Virus record (IMG/VR): IMGVR_UViG_3300049855_000474
Span: 89,376 to 153,375 of that record
Direction: 5' to 3' (one strand)
Length of the DNA: 64,000 nt
From: a virus
This document shows positions 17,592 through 51,852 of the stretch, in pieces. A program made the translations under genes and the position numbers. Each line of letters begins with the position of its first letter. The first letter of the stretch is position 1. The notes under the pieces are model-generated. The model saw only the letters and a list, made by a program, of their open reading frames with translations, was not told the origin of the DNA and did no database searches.

Positions 17592-18719
17592 ATGCCTGTT
17601 AAAGGATATAGACCGCCTGACGTAGACAGGGTCACCACCGATACTGACGTGTTGGATGACTTGGTTCAGCGCCATGTGCGCGAAGACCTACTTCCAATGA
17701 TCGCACAGAAATCTAGAAATGCCCTCAATGTTACACCGGTCTACATTGAGTATTTTCAAAGGCTCAAGACAGGCAGGCGCTGTTCTTGCTTTACTGTAGA
17801 AACGGATGCAGGCGGTCAATGTCCAGCCTGCTTTGGTACAGGTATCGTAGGCGGATACACTAAACGTGGTACCAAAACGGAAGTATTTGACGTTACCTAC
17901 CAAAATGTAGTGGCGGCTAACGTCCAAGCGGATTACAGTAATAGTACAAGACCTGTTTACTGGACCCTGGTGGATACAGCGGTCTATGGAACCCTAGAGT
18001 TTACAGTACAGGTTAATAAAAATTGTGGTCTTCTGGACGTTTACGAAATTAGAGACTATCAACCTACAGGCACTCTGATTCAGTACTTTGTGAGGGCAGA
18101 CGACGAAATCAACTTCGTAGCTATGACCCGAGCAGCACTAGAACAACGGCTAACAACAAGTTTTCTACATTTCAAAATTACAATAAAACGTAATAGTCCG
18201 GCAGCACCTCTACCGAAACTACAATTGTTTAGGTTTTCTTATCGGCTGCTTCGTTTGTCTTGTTTGCGTGCGGATATCCCGAGAGTAACAGAAAGCCAAA
18301 CACTAGAAGAGCTAGGACTCTATCAAAGCTGGACTAATCAGTCATATTTTCTAGACAACACGCTCAAAAACTGCTCAACCGAGGATTTTCTGATAAACCT
18401 ACAGGATAATACAAGATGGAAGGTAAACGAAGTAAAGGGAAATGCTCCACTGAACATCACCTTGTCGTGGGACCTAACTTGCCGTCTTGTTCTTGATACA
18501 GAACCTTATGCACTGGTACCAGCAGGCGTCGTAGATTCGAGTGTTTTGCCTTCTCAATTTATACGTTCTATACAAACTGACAAAGAGATTGTGGAACAGA
18601 CTCAACTTAATCCTGGGCATTTACGTCTACCTGGGAACAGGGCGGATCAAACTAACGTCAATCAAAGCCCCGTCGCGCCTGGTATTGCAGATGTGGCAAA
18701 ACCTAGTCGAAATACGTAA
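17592..18719 (+). CDS. putative head-completion/neck protein
   Basis: GRRCSC...CPACFGTGIVGGY motif characteristic of large-myophage neck proteins; SD AGGAG. Confidence 0.65.
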   Translation: MPVKGYRPPDVDRVTTDTDVLDDLVQRHVREDLLPMIAQKSRNALNVTPVYIEYFQRLKTGRRCSCFTVETDAGGQCPACFGTGIVGGYTKRGTKTEVFDVTYQNVVAANVQADYSNSTRPVYWTLVDTAVYGTLEFTVQVNKNCGLLDVYEIRDYQPTGTLIQYFVRADDEINFVAMTRAALEQRLTTSFLHFKITIKRNSPAAPLPKLQLFRFSYRLLRLSCLRADIPRVTESQTLEELGLYQSWTNQSYFLDNTLKNCSTEDFLINLQDNTRWKVNEVKGNAPLNITLSWDLTCRLVLDTEPYALVPAGVVDSSVLPSQFIRSIQTDKEIVEQTQLNPGHLRLPGNRADQTNVNQSPVAPGIADVAKPSRNT

Positions 18720-18731
18720 ACGAGGAAGAAA

Positions 18732-19076
18732 ATGGCGACGATTACTATCAAGATAAATACTGCGACAGTACCGGAAAAAGCGGTTATCGTTCTAGGTGAT
18801 TATCAACACGTCAAAAATTTGAGTCAGACTGTATCGGTAAACAAACCTCCGGTAGTCAGCACACATCACGGAGTTTCTAGGACACAGGAGTCCTTTATAG
18901 GCGGTTTAGTAATCAGTCAGTACGAGCAATCGTACGACCAGGAAATTTTCAAGCGATGGAACTGGGGAATGATCGCCGAACTAGCCACATTGATTGAGAA
19001 AAACAAAGTTTCTGTGAAATTAGATGGGGCAGCCCAAACAGCAACCCAAATACGAGCAATGTACACTTCGACGTAA
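18732..19076 (+). CDS. hypothetical protein
   Basis: SD GAGG, ORF in run. Confidence 0.65.
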   Translation: MATITIKINTATVPEKAVIVLGDYQHVKNLSQTVSVNKPPVVSTHHGVSRTQESFIGGLVISQYEQSYDQEIFKRWNWGMIAELATLIEKNKVSVKLDGAAQTATQIRAMYTST

Positions 19077-19085
19077 AGCTAAAAT

Positions 19086-19385
19086 ATGAAACCTACATAC
19101 ACCGAGAAGAGCATCGAAGGTATTCACTACTTCGCAATGTCAAAGACCGCCGCTGTTTCACAGGTGGTCCTTCGAATTTGTGAACTAGCAATATTGCATC
19201 GAGCGCATTTCGGAGATGTCATTCTTGACTTATCCGATGCTAAAGATTCAGATATCCCTTTACTCAATAGAGCTGTAAAGAAGTTGGTAGCGACCAATAG
19301 AAAAGTCGTAACCATAGGCAAACAATTTCAAAATATGCCCGTGCATACATCTATACAGTCTGCGGTGTCAGCCTTGAAGGATTAA
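19086..19385 (+). CDS. STAS-like (anti-sigma antagonist-like) protein
   Basis: VILDLSDAKDSD...KKL...KVVTIG...VHTSIQSA matches the STAS layout. Confidence 0.5.
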   Translation: MKPTYTEKSIEGIHYFAMSKTAAVSQVVLRICELAILHRAHFGDVILDLSDAKDSDIPLLNRAVKKLVATNRKVVTIGKQFQNMPVHTSIQSAVSALKD

Positions 19386-19413
19386 AGTTTTAATGTAACC
19401 AGGAGAAGAGCCT

Positions 19414-19611
19414 ATGGCGTACGTTGTAGTGGATATGGTTAATGATACCGAAGAAATTCTCTGCAGTGATAAATGTTGCGCAAGTTGCAACTGTTCATTA
19501 GAGAACTGCACAACCTACGCAGCGGGGGCTTCGCAGATATGCGTCGATTGCGCCAAACAAGAAGCTGCAAAGTATCATGAACATGTGATGCCTAGGCTTG
19601 AAACTTACTAA
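19414..19611 (+). CDS. small Zn-finger protein
   Basis: CASC...CVDC; SD AGGAG. Confidence 0.6.
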   Translation: MAYVVVDMVNDTEEILCSDKCCASCNCSLENCTTYAAGASQICVDCAKQEAAKYHEHVMPRLETY

Positions 19612-19677
19612 ATTTCCTTTAGTTTACTCTTAGCTTAATCTTTGGCTTACCACCTTACACACTAAAGGTGCTCAGCC

Positions 19678-19974
19678 ATGTCTAATACTATTATAGCTCT
19701 TGTAAGATGTACAGGATGTGAGGTAGACAGCCTGGCTCGTATCGTTCTTCAAGAACGTGAAGGTCAACCTTTCCGCTGTATTGAGCCTCCTAGACCCTGG
19801 CTATATGTATGGGCTGCTACAAGCAGTAAAGAAAAAGATTCAGTCTTCGCATGCTGTCGCTGGTGTGCTCGTGATATTATGGCGGAAATCGTCAACACGA
19901 CCAATGAAAAGATTGTGTACTCCTGGTGTGAGCAGACACAAGTTAGGGAGCGGTACGAGGTCAAAGATGAATGA
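19678..19974 (+). CDS. hypothetical Zn-binding protein
   Basis: CTGC...CCRWC. Confidence 0.6.
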   Translation: MSNTIIALVRCTGCEVDSLARIVLQEREGQPFRCIEPPRPWLYVWAATSSKEKDSVFACCRWCARDIMAEIVNTTNEKIVYSWCEQTQVRERYEVKDE

Positions 19975-20079
19975 GAGTCGTTATATAATTGAAGGATGCG
20001 AAAAGTGTATCCAAGGCAGTATAAGCCTAATACACTAGTAATTTCGAGAACCTCCAAGGAAGGAAGGAGGACGGGGTCA

Positions 20080-20583
20080 ATGACTAAAAGCAAAAAGTCG
20101 ATTAAGAAAACTCTAAATCGACCGAAACGTGTTTTGGGTCTTGACCCCGGTTAAATTTGCACCGTGAACTTTGCATTTAGTTTCTTAGTAGACGGCACAC
20201 TAGAGGAAACTGGTTGGTTAAAGCCTCAACCGAATGTCACAGATGACGCTGCTTTCCTTAATAACATCATAGAACTAATTCTTAGACTAAAGCCAGATGC
20301 CATAATAGCAGAACGCTATATGTTTCGTGGTATACAGAGCATACAAACTGAGCTAATTAGCCAAATGCTGGGACGCATAGCCATTATCACCAGGTATTAT
20401 CTAGGTCAAGAATTGTATCAGATTACAGCGTCGCAATGGAAAAACTTCTATAAAGTCAAGAAGCTAAAGAACGGTGTATACGACCTGTTCCCAGAAGACA
20501 CAGAGAGATTTGACCTAATCCACCAAGTGGACGCTGCCTGTATCGCTAAATACGGACAAGAGCGTTGGTGTTTACTAAAATGA
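20080..20583 (+). CDS. ruvC: RuvC-like Holliday junction resolvase interrupted by an in-frame TAA (20152-20154)
   Basis: SD GGAGG + ATG 20080 gives ...RVLGLDPG*ICTVNFAFS in frame with ORF 20164-20583 (IIAER, SQWK, HQVDAACIA). Confidence 0.8.
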
Positions 20584-20867
20584 CAGATTTCAACAAAGAA
20601 TATCCAGCCTGGTCAGTAAATAAACAAGAAGCCAAGAAAATTGGGGATCGTTTAGGTGTGGACTGGACAAGATTCCCTATCGAAGAGTTTCAAAAAGGGA
20701 TTGAAATTGAGTTCGAACACGTGACCGACATCGTGGAAGCTGCTCGGATTGCTATTATGCACCTAGTAGAATCTAAAACTTACTACAGGGACTTGGAGAG
20801 TGTTGAAAATAAAAAGGTCTCCGAGCACAGAAAAGTTCTCCTTGCCTTTATTAGGCAAGATCGATAG
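20580..20867 (+). CDS. DUF5661-like protein
   Basis: EEFQKGIEIEFEH...ARIAIMHLVESKTYY motif (family recalled from memory). Confidence 0.65.
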   Translation: MTDFNKEYPAWSVNKQEAKKIGDRLGVDWTRFPIEEFQKGIEIEFEHVTDIVEAARIAIMHLVESKTYYRDLESVENKKVSEHRKVLLAFIRQDR

Positions 20868-20869
20868 TT

Positions 20870-21150
20870 AAGCTCACCTACCATGTGTAGGTAGAGTAAC
20901 GGGGTTGTTAGGCAACCCCAGCCTTTTCACAGCAAGCTAGGCAATAGTGCTGACCTGACGGGTCCTTGCTGTAAAACCGACGTTGAAAAGCGTCCGTTAC
21001 GGAAACACTCAGCGCCCCGGCAAGTCTGGTTCAAAGAGTGAGACTCTAATGTCTAGGAGGGAATCATATGGAACTATGTAGTCTAGAGGCATGCAACCCC
21101 GAGCCGGCAGGTAAGCAGCAAAGTCGAGCCTAATATTCCCTGAAAACTTA
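20870..21150 (+). ncRNA. structured non-coding RNA with group-I-intron-like elements
   Basis: No credible ORF; dense helices (ACCTAC/GTAGGT, GGGGTTG/CAACCCC, ACAGCAAG/CTTGCTGT, GTGCTGA/TCAGCGC, GACGTT-GAAA-AGCGTC, AGGGAAT/ATTCCCT); followed by a terminator. Confidence 0.65.
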
Positions 21151-21151
21151 C

Positions 21152-21178
21152 AAAGCCCACCAAAAAGGTGGGCTTTCC
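21152..21178. terminator. bidirectional intrinsic terminator
   Basis: AAAGCCCACC-AAAAA-GGTGGGCTTT between convergent transcription units. Confidence 0.75.
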
Positions 21179-21183
21179 TAATT

Positions 21184-22158
21184 CTAGACAACTCGATTGA
21201 ATTCCTCTTGAAGAGAGGAGATATCCACTCGAATAGGACCGTAGTTTTCAATCATGCGATCCTGAATAACCGATGTTTTTTCACTGAAAGCGGCTAACCA
21301 AGTAGGCGCCTTACCCACACGCTTAGTCAAAGCCAGAGAATTATCGGGAACTTCCTCAGGAAATAAATCAGAAAGACCAAAATGCAGATGCTCTTGAAGG
21401 AGCCCATTTAGTAATTTAGAGGAGAGACCTAATGCTTCCTCTAAGTTACCTTGGGTGTTATACTTACGAATGGCCCAATTCAAGACCTCTGTAATCTCAA
21501 CCCCGCACGAAGATTCCAAAGATAGGACATGAACAGGCTTAGAAATCGAACAAGAAATACTACAATACTTATACCCATGATCTTCAATAGGAGCTTCGGT
21601 TAATGGTTGTTCACAAACAGAACATACAGAAAAATTCAACAAAGTTACAAAACGAGAATCGATCTCATACCCAGAGGTAGTATCTACCGATTCCTGACGT
21701 AAGAATAGCAATGCTTTATTGGTATCCTCGGTAATTTGCTTATGAGGGGTCCCGAGAATCATGCTCAACTCCAAGGTACTGAGCGTATCTACCTTGTGCT
21801 TACTCATATAAACTAAAATACAGTTTCGTACTCCTGGGTAGGTAGTGTAAAAAGAACAGTCACGAAGAGCACAATCAGTAATAATAGGCTCACCATGAAC
21901 TTTACACTTGACGTCTCCGACCTTAGCGCGAGCGGTTTGCCATAAACCTAACTTCTGAAGAGCCGAAACTGCCATATTCTTATCAAATATTGACATAATC
22001 TCTAATGATTTAGGCATATTACAAGCACTACAGGCTTGTAATGCTGGTAAACCACTTTGAGAGAGTTCGGATTCTAGCTGATCGCAAGTTGAACTACGTT
22101 CGAGTCCGTGCTTACAAGAAGCATCTTTTAGTACAGTCAAAGTATATTTTGATGACAT
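21184..22158 (-). CDS. Cys-rich protein with sigma-region-4-like HTH (putative transcription regulator)
   Basis: Several CxxC pairs; TLSTLELSMILGTPHKQI...ALLFLR HTH pattern. Confidence 0.55.
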   Translation of the reverse strand: MSSKYTLTVLKDASCKHGLERSSTCDQLESELSQSGLPALQACSACNMPKSLEIMSIFDKNMAVSALQKLGLWQTARAKVGDVKCKVHGEPIITDCALRDCSFYTTYPGVRNCILVYMSKHKVDTLSTLELSMILGTPHKQITEDTNKALLFLRQESVDTTSGYEIDSRFVTLLNFSVCSVCEQPLTEAPIEDHGYKYCSISCSISKPVHVLSLESSCGVEITEVLNWAIRKYNTQGNLEEALGLSSKLLNGLLQEHLHFGLSDLFPEEVPDNSLALTKRVGKAPTWLAAFSEKTSVIQDRMIENYGPIRVDISSLQEEFNRVV

Positions 22159-22261
22159 ATGCTAGCTTTTACAGTTAATGGTTATATATTTGGGAGGATA
22201 CCTAACCCTCTTGTCTGTTTATCTAAAGACAATTCGCCGTTTCAGGAACCAGGAGAAAACA

Positions 22262-23092
22262 ATGAGTAATAAGATACTCGAGCGATTCGCGGCGAAGACC
22301 GCTAAAGCGGGACTTGCTTCCCGTGGTGATATGTATGTTACGGATGTACAGAGAATTGATAATTCCAAATGCCGAGTGCTTGTTGGTTATTCAAAACTAG
22401 CAGGCGGGGTACCAACGATCCCACAGCTGGAGCAATATTTTCAGCAAACTTTCGGCAACAAAGTGATTGCCCAGACTAGTTCGGCTCAAAGCCATGAAGC
22501 AGAAGCGGCTATTAGCTTGCTTGTCACTCTGAATACGCCTAGTCGACCACTTTCGGATATGAATGATATGATCCGAGTGTCGGCAACTTCTTTCATGGAT
22601 GAGAATACGAAGCATCTCTGGCAGGTGGTGGACACAGGCTCCAACAAGTATCTCACTCGCGAAGCGGAAGAGAATGTTGCGGAGATCGTGGAAGCACGTC
22701 GTTCGCGTACGAGCAAGAAAGAAGCTCGTTTCGTGAATCTTAAGACAGCGGCTCCCATGGCTATGGCAGGTGATACGGTCAAGTTTATGAGCCCACAGAA
22801 TGTGGTTCTAATGGGTGAGATTTCTACCATCAGCGACGCCAAGGCTACAATAAAAGCTAACGGAGGCTCTTTCTCTGTGGATCGACAAGCCATTATCCAG
22901 GTGGTGGAGCGTGCTTCGAAATCTGTCCAGAGCAACAAGAATATTCTTGAAGACTATTTTACTAAAGCCTACGGCGACCCTGCATTTGCCAAGCAGCTAA
23001 CGGATAAGCAGTCCCAGGACCTTCACGGTCTTGGTACTACTGTACCAGCTACCCCTTCCGTAAAGGTACCAGGACGCAAAGACGGCGAGTGA
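22262..23092 (+). CDS. hypothetical protein, probably virion/head-associated
   Basis: SD AGGAG before ATG 22262; followed by a terminator. Confidence 0.7.
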   Translation: MSNKILERFAAKTAKAGLASRGDMYVTDVQRIDNSKCRVLVGYSKLAGGVPTIPQLEQYFQQTFGNKVIAQTSSAQSHEAEAAISLLVTLNTPSRPLSDMNDMIRVSATSFMDENTKHLWQVVDTGSNKYLTREAEENVAEIVEARRSRTSKKEARFVNLKTAAPMAMAGDTVKFMSPQNVVLMGEISTISDAKATIKANGGSFSVDRQAIIQVVERASKSVQSNKNILEDYFTKAYGDPAFAKQLTDKQSQDLHGLGTTVPATPSVKVPGRKDGE

Positions 23093-48759: not shown

Positions 48760-51700
48760 ATGACATCTGATAAAAAACGCCTTGCAATACTGAGCGATAT
48801 GCTGTACGTGCCTTCTTCTGAGGTACGTAACGAGCATTTAAACGCTTACACCTATAAGTTCGAAAAAGTCACATACGAGAAACCCACTGACGTTACTCGT
48901 AAGTGTGCCAACTGTGAGTTGTGGAAGAAGCCCTGGCGGAATGCTGAGGGTATTGAGATGTATTGCCACAAGCTGGGATACACCGAGACCGATTATTGCA
49001 ATAGATTCAATCCCAAGCAGGTTCGCAAAGTAGAGGAATACGAGGTTACCACTTATAAAGAGGTAGCTAACGAGTATTATGCTTTTGGTCGTGGAGATCT
49101 AGGGAAAGTTGAAAGAGTCTTCGGTGATTTCGAAGTAGTTGACCAGAGGTCAGCCCCTAAGTTAGGCATTCCTCTCAAGTTGAAGGAGGGGAGGGTATTG
49201 CGACCTGACCAGGTAGCTGTAGCGGAAGAATGGCTGAAGCATGGGTATGGAATAATTAAGGCACCGACCGCATTTGGCAAGTGCTCGAGCAAATCAAGCC
49301 TAATCGCTACATCTGAAGGACTTATCCCTATTGGAAAGTTTGTAGATAAAATATTAGGAAAAAAATATACTACGATTAGTGGACTTGATACCAAAGAAGT
49401 AAGTCACTTAAACTTATACGTGACTTCTAATGGACATAAGGCGAAAATTTCAGATGTGTGCCGTAAAAAAGCGGTTACCACAAAAATTCAAACTAAATGG
49501 GGTTATTCAATAGAATGTACTCCAGAGCATCCCTTACAAACAATAACGGACAAAGGGTTAAACTGGCGAGAGGTAAAGGATCTAAAACCAAATGATTATA
49601 TCGCAATTCGTGGTTTTGATTTCTATGGATCTCCTAAAAATCTTGAAGAGTACAGCTACATAAATACATGTACAACATCCCCTAATAAAAAACCCATAAG
49701 ACTACCAACTACTATTACACCCTCCTTTTCCCGATTACTTGGAGCTTTAACCGCAGATGGTACCCTATCTATAAAGGGTAGTATAGCTTACACAAAAACA
49801 GAAGAAGCCTTGATAGAGGATTTCAGAAATAGCTTAAAACAATTTGATCTAGAGTTAGATACTGTTAAAAATAGAACAGTAGAACATAAAGTAAGAGGTG
49901 GAATAACAGCCTTTCAAGAACTACTACAGATTATAGGCGTGAAGCAAGAAACTGCAAGGTACAAAGAAGTACCATGGATTGTATTGCAATCAGGCAAAGA
50001 AATTGCGAAACAATTTCTTAAAGGTTATTTTTCTGGTGATGGTGAAGTGGCTCACGAACTATCCCATATCGAATGCTCTAGTGCTAGTAAGCAATTAATT
50101 GAAACTATACAAATAATGCTACTAGGCTTCTGTATCCCCTCAATAATCTACCCAAAACCCGTCAAGTTAGAACAATGGGATTGCGCAAGAGATTACTGGA
50201 GACTGTATATAGGTCCCGCCTTTCTGAAGAAATTTCAAGAAGAGATAGGCTTCATAGACAAAACTAAAAAATCTACTTTACTAGAAGCTGCTGTTGTTAA
50301 ATATGACAACAGAAATAATAGTGGTAGCGAGTTTACACTTCCCATAAGTGGTTTACTAAAAAAAGCATACCAAGCTTTAATACTAAATAAAGCTAAGGCG
50401 TATGAGACGTGCAAACAGTTTAAACACATATGGGAGCGTGGATCTCGTGTAGACCCAAGAACACTAAAGCGTTTTCTTGAATTATACCAAGATTATCAGC
50501 ATCTCCCGGAAATCGCCGTACTACAGGAAATATACGACTTAAACCAAAATCATGGTCTATGGTTTGTTGAAGTAAAAGAAATTACAGAAGGTGCTGAGCA
50601 GTACGTATACGATATCACAGTTCCTGAGGGGCATTGGTATGTAGCTAACGGAATAGTCAGCCACAACACTGTCTTGTGGTGTTACCTCGTTCAACACCTA
50701 GGGATGAGGTCATTGCTTCTCGCACAAGAGGTTCGGCACTTAGCCGTAGGCTGGGAAGGTCTATACGAGCATACCAACTTAGCGGAGTTAGAGGAAGAAG
50801 CTGGAGAGTTTCTCTGGGGAAAAGTAGGTCATGATACGTCCAAAGTAGTGACCCAAGTGAGAAACTCAAAAGGGGAGCTTGTTGACAGAGTAGAATTTAA
50901 GTTCAAAAAGAGCAAAGACCCAGCAAAAATCTACCCTATCACGTTCTCAACGTACCAATCTCTACATTCAGAAAAAGGTTGGGAAATACTACAAACAAAA
51001 CTGAGGGATTCTTTTGGATTTATTCACTGTGAAGAAGCCCATCACTCCGCAGCCGAGACTTTCCACCATGTAACAAAATCCTTCAATAGCTACTACCGTG
51101 GTGGTCAGTCTGCAACACCTACACGCAAAGACCAAATGCATTGTGCTACATACGATACAATTGGACCAGTAACCGCTTTAGCTACAAAGGAGCAGATGAA
51201 TTGTGACTTCACTTTCATTAATACTGGGGTGTACCTACCTGATAAAGTATTCAACGGGATGTACCCACTGACCAATGTTTTCAATTTCTTAGCTACCAAT
51301 ACCGACGTACAAAACTGTCTTCTACAGTGGATGAATTACGACATCCAATCAGGAAGGAAGCCTCTGTATATCACCGAGCGTAAAGCTGATGCCTTCTCGC
51401 TAAAGAGTAAAATCCACCTGTCCGGATATAACGTCGAGCTGATCATGGGTGGTCAGAAAATGCAGAAACAACAAAAAGAGTATTCCGAGGAACTACTTAA
51501 TGGCTCACTGCATTGTATTATTGGTACAAAAGTAATCAAAGAGAATTACAACATTCCACCATTGGATACTTTGTACCTGCTGTACCCAAACTTCGTGGTA
51601 GAGTCTGAAGAGCAGATGACGGGACGTATTCGGCGCTACGTTCTGGATGCTGAGGGAAACCAAGTGTTCAAGAACAAGCCTCTGATCAGGATTTTCACTG

Positions 51701-51852
51701 TCAACTCTAGCCAAGAAGTGATGAAAAAGTCGATCAACTTCCGGAAGAATTTCTATTACAAGATGAGCTTCGAAGAGATTCAAGTAGATACCACAGAACA
51801 CGAGACGGAGAAACCAGATGATCGTGTATCGAGCAAACTGAAAGATTGGTAA
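48760..51852 (+). CDS. superfamily 2 (UvsW-like) helicase with intein
   Basis: LRPDQ, APTAFGK|T, EEAHH, SATPTRKD, IPPLD, QMTGRIRR. Confidence 0.92.
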   Translation: MTSDKKRLAILSDMLYVPSSEVRNEHLNAYTYKFEKVTYEKPTDVTRKCANCELWKKPWRNAEGIEMYCHKLGYTETDYCNRFNPKQVRKVEEYEVTTYKEVANEYYAFGRGDLGKVERVFGDFEVVDQRSAPKLGIPLKLKEGRVLRPDQVAVAEEWLKHGYGIIKAPTAFGKCSSKSSLIATSEGLIPIGKFVDKILGKKYTTISGLDTKEVSHLNLYVTSNGHKAKISDVCRKKAVTTKIQTKWGYSIECTPEHPLQTITDKGLNWREVKDLKPNDYIAIRGFDFYGSPKNLEEYSYINTCTTSPNKKPIRLPTTITPSFSRLLGALTADGTLSIKGSIAYTKTEEALIEDFRNSLKQFDLELDTVKNRTVEHKVRGGITAFQELLQIIGVKQETARYKEVPWIVLQSGKEIAKQFLKGYFSGDGEVAHELSHIECSSASKQLIETIQIMLLGFCIPSIIYPKPVKLEQWDCARDYWRLYIGPAFLKKFQEEIGFIDKTKKSTLLEAAVVKYDNRNNSGSEFTLPISGLLKKAYQALILNKAKAYETCKQFKHIWERGSRVDPRTLKRFLELYQDYQHLPEIAVLQEIYDLNQNHGLWFVEVKEITEGAEQYVYDITVPEGHWYVANGIVSHNTVLWCYLVQHLGMRSLLLAQEVRHLAVGWEGLYEHTNLAELEEEAGEFLWGKVGHDTSKVVTQVRNSKGELVDRVEFKFKKSKDPAKIYPITFSTYQSLHSEKGWEILQTKLRDSFGFIHCEEAHHSAAETFHHVTKSFNSYYRGGQSATPTRKDQMHCATYDTIGPVTALATKEQMNCDFTFINTGVYLPDKVFNGMYPLTNVFNFLATNTDVQNCLLQWMNYDIQSGRKPLYITERKADAFSLKSKIHLSGYNVELIMGGQKMQKQQKEYSEELLNGSLHCIIGTKVIKENYNIPPLDTLYLLYPNFVVESEEQMTGRIRRYVLDAEGNQVFKNKPLIRIFTVNSSQEVMKKSINFRKNFYYKMSFEEIQVDTTEHETEKPDDRVSSKLKDW
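49282..50667 (+). mobile_element. intein (462 aa) with LAGLIDADG endonuclease in helicase Walker A
   Basis: K|CSSKSS...ECTPEHP...LLGALTADG...FLKGYFSGDG...VYDITV...NGIVSHN|T. Confidence 0.95.

Follow-up and report, generated by a model that had tools for sequence, protein, structure and literature searches.

A stop-containing 9-nt insertion behind the catalytic DPG motif of a phage ruvC-like gene: a candidate for short-gap translational bypassing

Translational bypassing, by which a gap inside a coding region is left untranslated, is established for gene 60 of phage T4, for homologues of this gene and for the mitochondrial genome of one yeast (PMC5009743; bioRxiv 10.1101/2022.08.31.505936). 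In T4 the gaps interrupt catalytic metal-binding motifs, at a codon for Gly or Asp (bioRxiv 10.1101/2022.08.31.505936), and a natural in-frame stop-hop was not known according to the 2016 review by Atkins (PMC5009743). Here we describe a gene for a RuvC-like resolvase in a stretch of 64,000 nucleotides (nt) of viral DNA (IMG/VR record IMGVR_UViG_3300049855_000474, positions 89,376 to 153,375; in the following called the window, to whose first letter all positions refer). Directly behind the codons for the catalytic Asp-Pro-Gly (DPG) this gene is interrupted by 9 nt which contain a stop codon. The insertion is confirmed and its place is exact; at the same codon, a second phage has an insert of its own. 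Tentatively, and with somewhat less than full conviction that it is even the probable one, we favour the reading that the gene is still in use and that the 9 nt are a short gap in its coding sequence, that is, a short-gap variant of translational bypassing. The window represents the last 64 kb of a single virus contig of 153,375 bp. As CheckV rates this contig at about 36% of a genome, it comes from an uncultured phage of very large genome size. Among public runs the stretch occurs in one only, a metagenome of freshwater sediment, and no RNA run is listed with it.

Read from the ATG at 20080 on the plus strand, the region in question runs CTT GAC CCC GGT TAA ATT TGC ACC GTG AAC in one reading frame. 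The protein around the gap is ...LGLDPG, followed by stop-Ile-Cys and then, in the same frame, by TVNFAFS. In a protein alignment of the 17-member family this appears as an exact three-codon insertion relative to the 15 intact members, all of which read LGLDPG-xxN with no gap. The alignment bears out an initial annotation of this DNA, made from the letters alone, which had described a stop-containing 9-nt insertion after DPG with the rest of the gene in frame; its positions for the GGAGG (20066–20070), the ATG (20080), the GGT (20149–20151), the TAA (20152–20154), the ACC (20161) and the GTG (20164) are all right as well. In a close relative, L027 (protein P0018, same 90% cluster), the gene is intact and reads CCC GGC ACC at this place. 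When the 9 nt are taken out of the window, LGLDPGTVNFAFS results, which is the same as in L027. Since L027 is intact and aligns as CCCCG/GCACC, the window, on this comparison, gained exactly 9 nt within an ancestral GGC codon for Gly, after its split from L027. The inserted bases on the plus strand are TTAAATTTG at 20151–20159 or, equivalently, GTTAAATTT at 20150–20158, the two placements being GG-TTAAATTTG-C and G-GTTAAATTT-GC; of the two 9-mers offered by the initial annotation, the second one, TTAAATTTG, fits the alignment to L027. The insert is AU-rich and carries its in-frame TAA at 20152–20154. The Gly24 codon, now GGT (20149–20151, plus strand) and ancestrally GGC as in L027, is the candidate take-off codon, whereas the TGC at the start of 20158–20163 (plus strand) is the candidate landing triplet, followed by the ACC (Thr) at which the conserved protein resumes. 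The Logan assembly of the only run with this stretch gave the identical sequence at a word depth of 53 and no variant contig. With regard to an assembly error, which the initial annotation had wished to see excluded, this agreement is helpful only in part: the Logan assembly is probably built from the same data, so it excludes a quirk of the assembler and does not constitute an independent sample.

The second interrupted allele, L002, comes from a different run and is located on a Logan contig of 998 bp, where its protein P0004 is called as one of 138 residues starting with MNFAWS. The DNA upstream of this start reads GAC CCT GGT TAG GTA CCG TGA AT. An intact mini-open reading frame (mini-ORF) of 26 codons ends in ...RVLGLDPG and is followed by TAG, and the remainder of the gene lies 5 nt out of frame. 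The insert, TAGGT, stands between GGT and ACC, at the same codon as in the window and with a different sequence; its removal yields DPGTVNFAWS exactly. L002 is 75% identical to the window at the amino acid level and 81% identical to L003, which is intact at the site. In the phylogenetic tree the window is paired with the intact L001 (support 88/95), and L002 stands beside L003. From this placement, and from the intact state of both L027 and L003, we read the two inserts as probably independent events. A single origin of both gaps was considered and rejected: an approximately unbiased (AU) test does not reject a clade of window and L002 (p 0.107), but the insertion in the window is younger than its split from the intact L027. 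Related genes had been named by the initial annotation as the place to look for the same insertion; they do not have it, L027 and 15 of the 17 members being intact, but L002 has another one in the same codon. Both inserts place a stop directly after a GGT codon for Gly (TAA in the window, TAG in L002). From base composition we estimate the chance of a stop directly after the Gly at about 0.05 for each insert and about 0.003 for both.

The state of the gene was judged by comparison with L027. In the C-terminal part the two differ by 51 synonymous and 7 non-synonymous changes, corresponding to a synonymous rate (dS) of about 1.1, a non-synonymous rate (dN) of 0.022 and a dN/dS of 0.02, and in the RVLGLDPG stretch there are synonymous differences only. 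None of the 14 residues unique to the window falls within the 41 best-conserved columns of the alignment, where 4.2 would be expected. Neither of the two interrupted genes shows any other lesion, both gene halves are intact, and both genes have kept the Shine-Dalgarno (SD) sequence and the ATG of the mini-ORF. These comparisons indicate that strong constraint has acted over the divergence of window and L027, but a low dN/dS does not date the insertion. The argument of the initial annotation, that the undamaged remainder of the gene speaks against ordinary decay, therefore holds as far as the dN/dS goes, but the insertion itself is undated and a recent knock-out remains a rival. Such a knock-out would have to be recent indeed: under neutrality about 160 non-synonymous changes would be expected per full branch and 7 are observed, which limits the age of a null allele, by our own rough estimate, to less than about 3% of the window–L027 branch. 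No gap is known to be common to diverged relatives; the two inserts differ and the nearest relative, L027, is intact.

In the window the whole mini-ORF is enclosed by a predicted hairpin (20072–20149, plus strand) with CGGGGTCAA(T)GACT as the 5' arm and GGTCTTGACCCCG as the 3' arm. The start codon is part of the 5' arm, and the last base of the 3' arm is the first G of the take-off codon. The perfect complementarity between CGGGGTCAA (20072–20080) and TTGACCCCG (20141–20149), to which the initial annotation had drawn attention, is confirmed, and these 9-mers form the outer part of the larger structure. Its minimum free energy is -36 to -39 kcal/mol, with a z-score of -3.66 against dinucleotide shuffles, of which 0 out of 200 were as stable, and of -6.0 against mononucleotide shuffles. 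L002 has the same hairpin architecture (z -5.0), and one pair in it is compensatory, being A-U in the window but C-G in L002. When the 5' hairpins of nine relatives are compared, those of the two interrupted genes are the strongest, with z-scores of -6.0 and -5.0, and the intact ones range from -0.3 to -3.8. In L027 the 5' arm is missing, since its 5' untranslated region (UTR) differs there by 22 nt. A weaker pairing from the start to DPG is present in L001 and L011 as well, both of them intact; the hairpin is thus not confined to interrupted genes and probably predates the gaps. In phage T4 a hairpin limits initiation on gene 49, which codes for a toxic nuclease, and by analogy the original role of the hairpin described here may have been a similar one.

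Several conceivable origins of the insert were checked. The 9-mer and the surrounding 12–15-mers occur a single time in the 153-kb contig, and templating of the insertion, be it by another site or by the opposite arm of the hairpin, is thereby out. The same is true for a target-site duplication or transposon footprint, as the 9 nt copy neither flank and GGTA...TACC is not recreated. The initial annotation had also thought of a micro-intron, but 9 nt are too short to self-splice and an Rfam search of positions 18000–23000 with E-values up to 1 gave no match; to our knowledge, there is no bacterial or phage mechanism for splicing out 9 nt. An intron of the group I/II or bulge-helix-bulge type is out on the same grounds. 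The scar of an excised element, another option of the initial annotation, is conceivable. A consensus scan reports a terminator-like site at 20134–20160, consisting of a small GC stem (20134–20150) and the T-rich insert. An intrinsic terminator made by the insert is nevertheless out: such sites are counted at chance level, the U-tract is broken and L002 has none.

If the gap is bypassed, ribosomes would translate the 24-codon mini-ORF until the TAA enters the A site, with peptidyl-tRNA-Gly sitting on GGU. Some of them would fail to terminate, the tRNA would unpair, the mRNA would slide by 9 nt, and the tRNA would re-pair on UGC at two of three positions, whereupon decoding would restart at ACC. 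The product of this hop would be the ancestral ...LGLDPG-TVNFAFS... resolvase. In L002 the same tRNA would cover 5 nt, leaving its GGU, passing the UAG and landing on a second GGU that matches perfectly. The matched GGT/GGT which flanks the stop in L002 is what the published rules for hops require (PMC5009743; bioRxiv 10.1101/2022.08.31.505936). The first triplet 3' of the stop in the window to match GGY at two of three positions is UGC, which is also the sole one that restores the frame; it should pair at two of three positions with the tRNA-Gly reading GGY. Latitude in P-site re-pairing is documented (bioRxiv 10.1101/2022.08.31.505936; Herr 2004 cited in PMC3014915), and so is landing with two of three matches, in mitochondrial byp elements (PMC5009743). 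For the stop-hop, one of the options named in the initial annotation, the two alleles consequently differ: the matched triplets around the TAG of L002 favour it, but the GGU/UGC of the window is unmatched. The 3' arm of the hairpin lies just 5' of the take-off codon, and it could zip up as the mRNA exits and bias the movement in the forward direction. The hairpin could in this way act as the pairing of exiting mRNA that was proposed as a driver of bypass by Wills et al. (bioRxiv 10.1101/2024.12.09.627546). The same hairpin would bury the start codon, and both effects together would hold down the amount of a nuclease that is potentially toxic. We infer the hop and its efficiency, the role of the hairpin, and that the gene survives the gap instead of being killed by it. 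The complete scheme, a natural short-range hopping over gaps of 5 and 9 nt, with peptidyl-tRNA-Gly, re-pairing at two of three positions, assistance by the hairpin and a throttled output of nuclease, is conceivable, but with all of its parts together it is rather unlikely.

The locus resembles T4 gene 60 and the homologues of this gene in topoisomerases of Myoviridae in the position of the putatively untranslated gap, within a catalytic metal-binding motif after Asp-x-Gly or Asp-Gly. It further shares with T4 gene 60 a Gly codon for take-off, a stop directly 3' of it, an AU-rich gap, mRNA structure 5' of the take-off codon and a basic nascent peptide. Unlike gene 60, the gap comprises 9 or 5 instead of 50 nt, the host gene is ruvC and the case is known from its sequence alone; furthermore, the window is without a convincing take-off stem-loop, a mini-SD or a MobA-type cassette, and its landing triplet matches at two of three positions. 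Another likeness is to the synthetic stop-hops and the starvation-induced short hops of Escherichia coli (PMC5009743), in which the P-site tRNA moves over a stop to a nearby cognate codon, a pattern that the GGU UAG GU of L002 fits exactly. Those hops are engineered or stress-induced and of low efficiency (PMC5009743), whereas here natural alleles of phage genes are concerned. The bypassed byps of the mitochondria of Magnusiomyces capitatus (PMC5009743) are likewise short inserts with imperfect take-off and landing sites, tolerate two-of-three matches and have AU-rich 3' parts, but they are found at 81 sites in a mitochondrial system with relaxed decoding, whereas here it is a single gene of a bacterial virus.

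The bypass reading has to face a number of objections. Take-off and landing triplets of the window are unmatched, as between GGU and UGC only positions 2 and 3 pair, and a take-off stem-loop of the gene 60 type would have just 4 bp in the window with a z-score of +0.68, which is not significant. There is no homing endonuclease next to ruvC, unlike the situation at T4 mobA/gene 60, UAA-A is a normal and frequent stop context in this genome, and the pairing from start to DPG occurs also in the intact L001 and L011. The GGT...GGT repeat of L002 could be the by-product of a duplication-type mutation, and as the contig covers about 36% of the genome, this ruvC could be dispensable thanks to a second resolvase. 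Finally, only two cases exist, no diverged lineage is known with either gap and the low dN/dS could wholly predate a very recent insertion, so that persistence of the gaps under selection would be an assumption. The gravest competitor follows from these points: both genes could be dead, having lost their function recently through small insertions that arise repeatedly at a mutational hot spot. Possible causes of the latter are a polymerase that stalls at the hairpin's 3' foot, repair by an error-prone route once a site-specific nuclease has cut the conserved DNA coding for DPG, or the imprecise loss of a homing element. We consider this explanation a serious one, albeit rather unlikely. It agrees with the intact state of the closest relative, from which it follows that the insertion is younger than the split and could be very young, with the 15 intact genes among 17 family members and with the restriction to two alleles, the unmatched landing triplet of the window and the missing endonuclease cassette. 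The inserts are located 1–2 nt past the point where base pairing stops in the strongest hairpins of the family, this phage has active homing elements (a helicase intein of the LAGLIDADG type is absent from the related contig G001), a back-up resolvase is conceivable in view of the low completeness of the genome, and the terminal branches of the interrupted genes are 3–4 times as long as those of L001 and L003, although that of the window mostly predates L027. Yet a hot spot leaves unexplained why a stop follows the Gly directly in both inserts and why the matched GGT was recreated in L002, and it is for these two reasons that we rank bypassing above null alleles. Moreover, neither gene has acquired a second lesion, the age limit of less than about 3% of the window–L027 branch (our estimate) is narrow, the interrupted sequence is the consensus at 53-fold depth, and the insert neither duplicates a flank nor has its template in the opposite arm of the hairpin. 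The cost of a null allele would be raised by a polar effect on the downstream gene for a DUF5661 protein, which overlaps with ruvC: this gene starts within the stop of ruvC and no SD sequence is seen before it, so that termination at codon 24 would be paid for by DUF5661, too.

Bypassing, null alleles and a restart of translation each explain both alleles regardless of the frame. In the case of a restart, ribosomes would terminate at the TAA and begin anew at the GTG at 20164, and the released peptide of 24 residues would dock non-covalently into the fragment of 139 residues to form a two-piece enzyme. A GTG follows a few bases after the insert's stop in both genes, whatever the frame (9 nt in the window, 5 nt in L002), the insert of L002 creates an AGG 4 nt before its GTG, and a single mechanism would cover both frames. 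The cut is predicted to lie in the turn between strands beta-1 and beta-2, in the loop between E17–22 and E31–37 of the structural model, and phage enzymes split at a metal site can work, as T4 gp39/gp60 and NrdA of Aeromonas phage Aeh1 demonstrate (bioRxiv 10.1101/2022.08.31.505936). With these two, of which NrdA is split by MobE, our gene has in common that it is cut inside the catalytic site and that its pieces could reassemble, but it differs from them by having no endonuclease gene between the pieces, no added tails as in the MobA and MobE splits, and one piece of just 24 residues. This small piece would have to find its partner after release, and in the window there is no SD sequence before the GTG, which is probably ancestral (Val in L027 and L001) and hence no evidence of adaptation. 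Beta-1 is, furthermore, the central strand in RNase H-like folds. Altogether, we take a two-piece enzyme to be unlikely. Readthrough of the UAA by a near-cognate tRNA, which could operate in the window only, would add three residues (X-I-C) to the beta1-beta2 loop. The insert is in frame, and in an AlphaFold model of the product the RuvC fold is preserved and the additional residues lie in the loop (predicted local distance difference test, pLDDT, of 79 for the block). Against it stand the stop usage and the tRNAs of the contig: TAA is the commonest stop (ending 74 of 160 long ORFs) and TAAA the commonest tetranucleotide, the tRNAs are those for Asn, Phe and Lys only, with no suppressor among them, and in the regions common to the window genome and to the relatives' contigs G001 and G002 ruvC is the sole real gene with an in-frame stop. 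These same facts rule out genome-wide recoding or stop reassignment, and as the out-of-frame allele L002 could not be rescued, readthrough, which the initial annotation had listed, is improbable as a general mechanism and very improbable for the window as well. That the interruptions are artefacts of assembly or sequencing we find hardly credible. Both sequences are metagenomic contigs, and that of L002 is a Logan contig of merely 998 bp, but two assemblers agree on the window at a depth of 53, complex insertions of 9 and 5 nt are atypical of Illumina errors, and two samples have different inserts in the same codon.

As a pair of natural alleles with a matched (L002) and a mismatched (window) landing site, the two genes bear on the pairing that a hop needs and on the question whether structure in the exiting mRNA drives it. 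If they are dead, they would point to one exact site in the DPG-coding DNA of phage resolvase genes as a hot spot of mutation or of nuclease attack, and they would be a warning that intact-looking halves do not prove function. Searches for further alleles had the following outcome. Against INPHARED, blastn gave no match and tblastn found distant intact resolvases only. Scans of IMG/VR and of JGI metagenomes returned intact relatives only, and exact-pattern scans of IMG/VR for gapped alleles had 0 hits. A profile search of 1.84 billion representatives produced 950 hits, the best 150 of which include no further protein starting right after DPG.

The gene itself (20080–20583, plus strand) matches phrog_18317 (E 1.2e-15) and phrog_159 (E 4e-4), and a Pfam search with its protein gave no match. 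An AlphaFold2 model of the RuvC-like protein reached a pLDDT of 88 and a predicted template modelling score (pTM) of 0.84. Its best matches in the PDB are the RuvC structures 4ld0, 7w8d and 1hjr from Thermus, Deinococcus and E. coli (E about 4e-6, template modelling score, TM, 0.6–0.73). Judged by these matches and by the model, the product is a RuvC-like Holliday junction resolvase, with junction cleavage as a predicted activity only. The catalytic motifs, with the Asp of DPG, the Glu of AERY and the His and Asp of HQVDA, are all present in the window. In the 17-sequence alignment E78, H148 and D151 are invariant and D22 nearly so, as are P23 and G24. The window has all four of the former residues, but D22 is encoded in the upstream mini-ORF. 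In its fold (TM 0.69–0.73 to 4ld0) and its Asp, Glu and His-Asp residues the protein is like RuvC of Thermus (4ld0), E. coli (1hjr) and Lactococcus phage 67 (4ktw); unlike in these, its first catalytic Asp belongs to a separate ORF of 24 codons. This mini-ORF (MTKSKKSIKKTLNRPKRVLGLDPG plus TAA; 20080–20154, plus strand) codes for a basic tail, strand beta-1 and the catalytic Asp22. It is preceded by the SD sequence GGAGG (20066–20070, plus strand), read directly 9 nt upstream of the ATG and located inside the 22-nt segment of the 5' UTR that is missing from L027. The C-terminal ORF has 139 codons from the candidate restart codon GTG (20164–20583, plus strand) and holds E78, H148 and D151.

Downstream, the gene for the DUF5661 protein (PF18905; 20580–20867, plus strand) overlaps with ruvC, whose TGA shares the ATGA at 20580–20583 with the ATG of DUF5661. 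A purine-rich SD stretch is not visible before this ATG. As the overlap is present also in the gene calls of L010, L011, L013 and L027, a translationally coupled pair of resolvase and DUF5661 genes is suggested. The order of genes in the ruvC region is the same as in the intact relatives. Among the 7 ORFs at 18732–23092 besides ruvC no homing endonuclease was found: none has a Pfam nuclease match, and DUF5661 is the only match.

Between DUF5661 and a converging gene of 324 residues there is an intergenic stretch of about 300 nt (20868–21183) which aligns well with L001. Changes in its stem are compensatory (CAGCAAG...CTTGCTG versus CAGTAGG...CCTACTG), it has no match in Rfam, and its 3' end is a strong bidirectional terminator-like hairpin (21152–21176). 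It probably represents a structured RNA, as judged from this conservation, and is unrelated to the gap in ruvC. A role as trans-acting ribozyme or guide for the insert was considered and is out, since the element is conserved in L001 despite an intact ruvC and the GGGG/CCCC hairpin on which the supposed pairing would depend is absent there.

Elsewhere in the window, a helicase gene (ResIII / Helicase_C; 48760–51852) contains an in-frame intein of 1386 nt at about 49282–50667, which includes a homing endonuclease domain of the LAGLIDADG type. The helicase homologue of the relative G001 is without this intein, which indicates that homing elements are active in this phage lineage. Outside of the window, at G000:C1:67138-70268 on the minus strand, two ORFs of 866 and about 190 residues correspond to one ORF of 952 residues in G002. 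They are connected by a TAATG stop-start overlap, with an extra segment of about 100 residues before the junction. This pair was inspected as a possible second coding gap and rejected, as it is an ordinary gene fission via the TAATG overlap.

The intact relatives mostly share a motif, GTTATTTAACTATGTGG and variants of it, upstream of ruvC, which runs directly into a GTG start codon. Such sites are found at about 2947–2963 in L003, 2989–3005 in L011 and 1018–1034 in L001. Judged by its position, the motif may be a promoter from which ruvC is transcribed nearly without a leader. A different 5' region, with an ATG and an SD sequence, is found in the window, in L027 and in L002.

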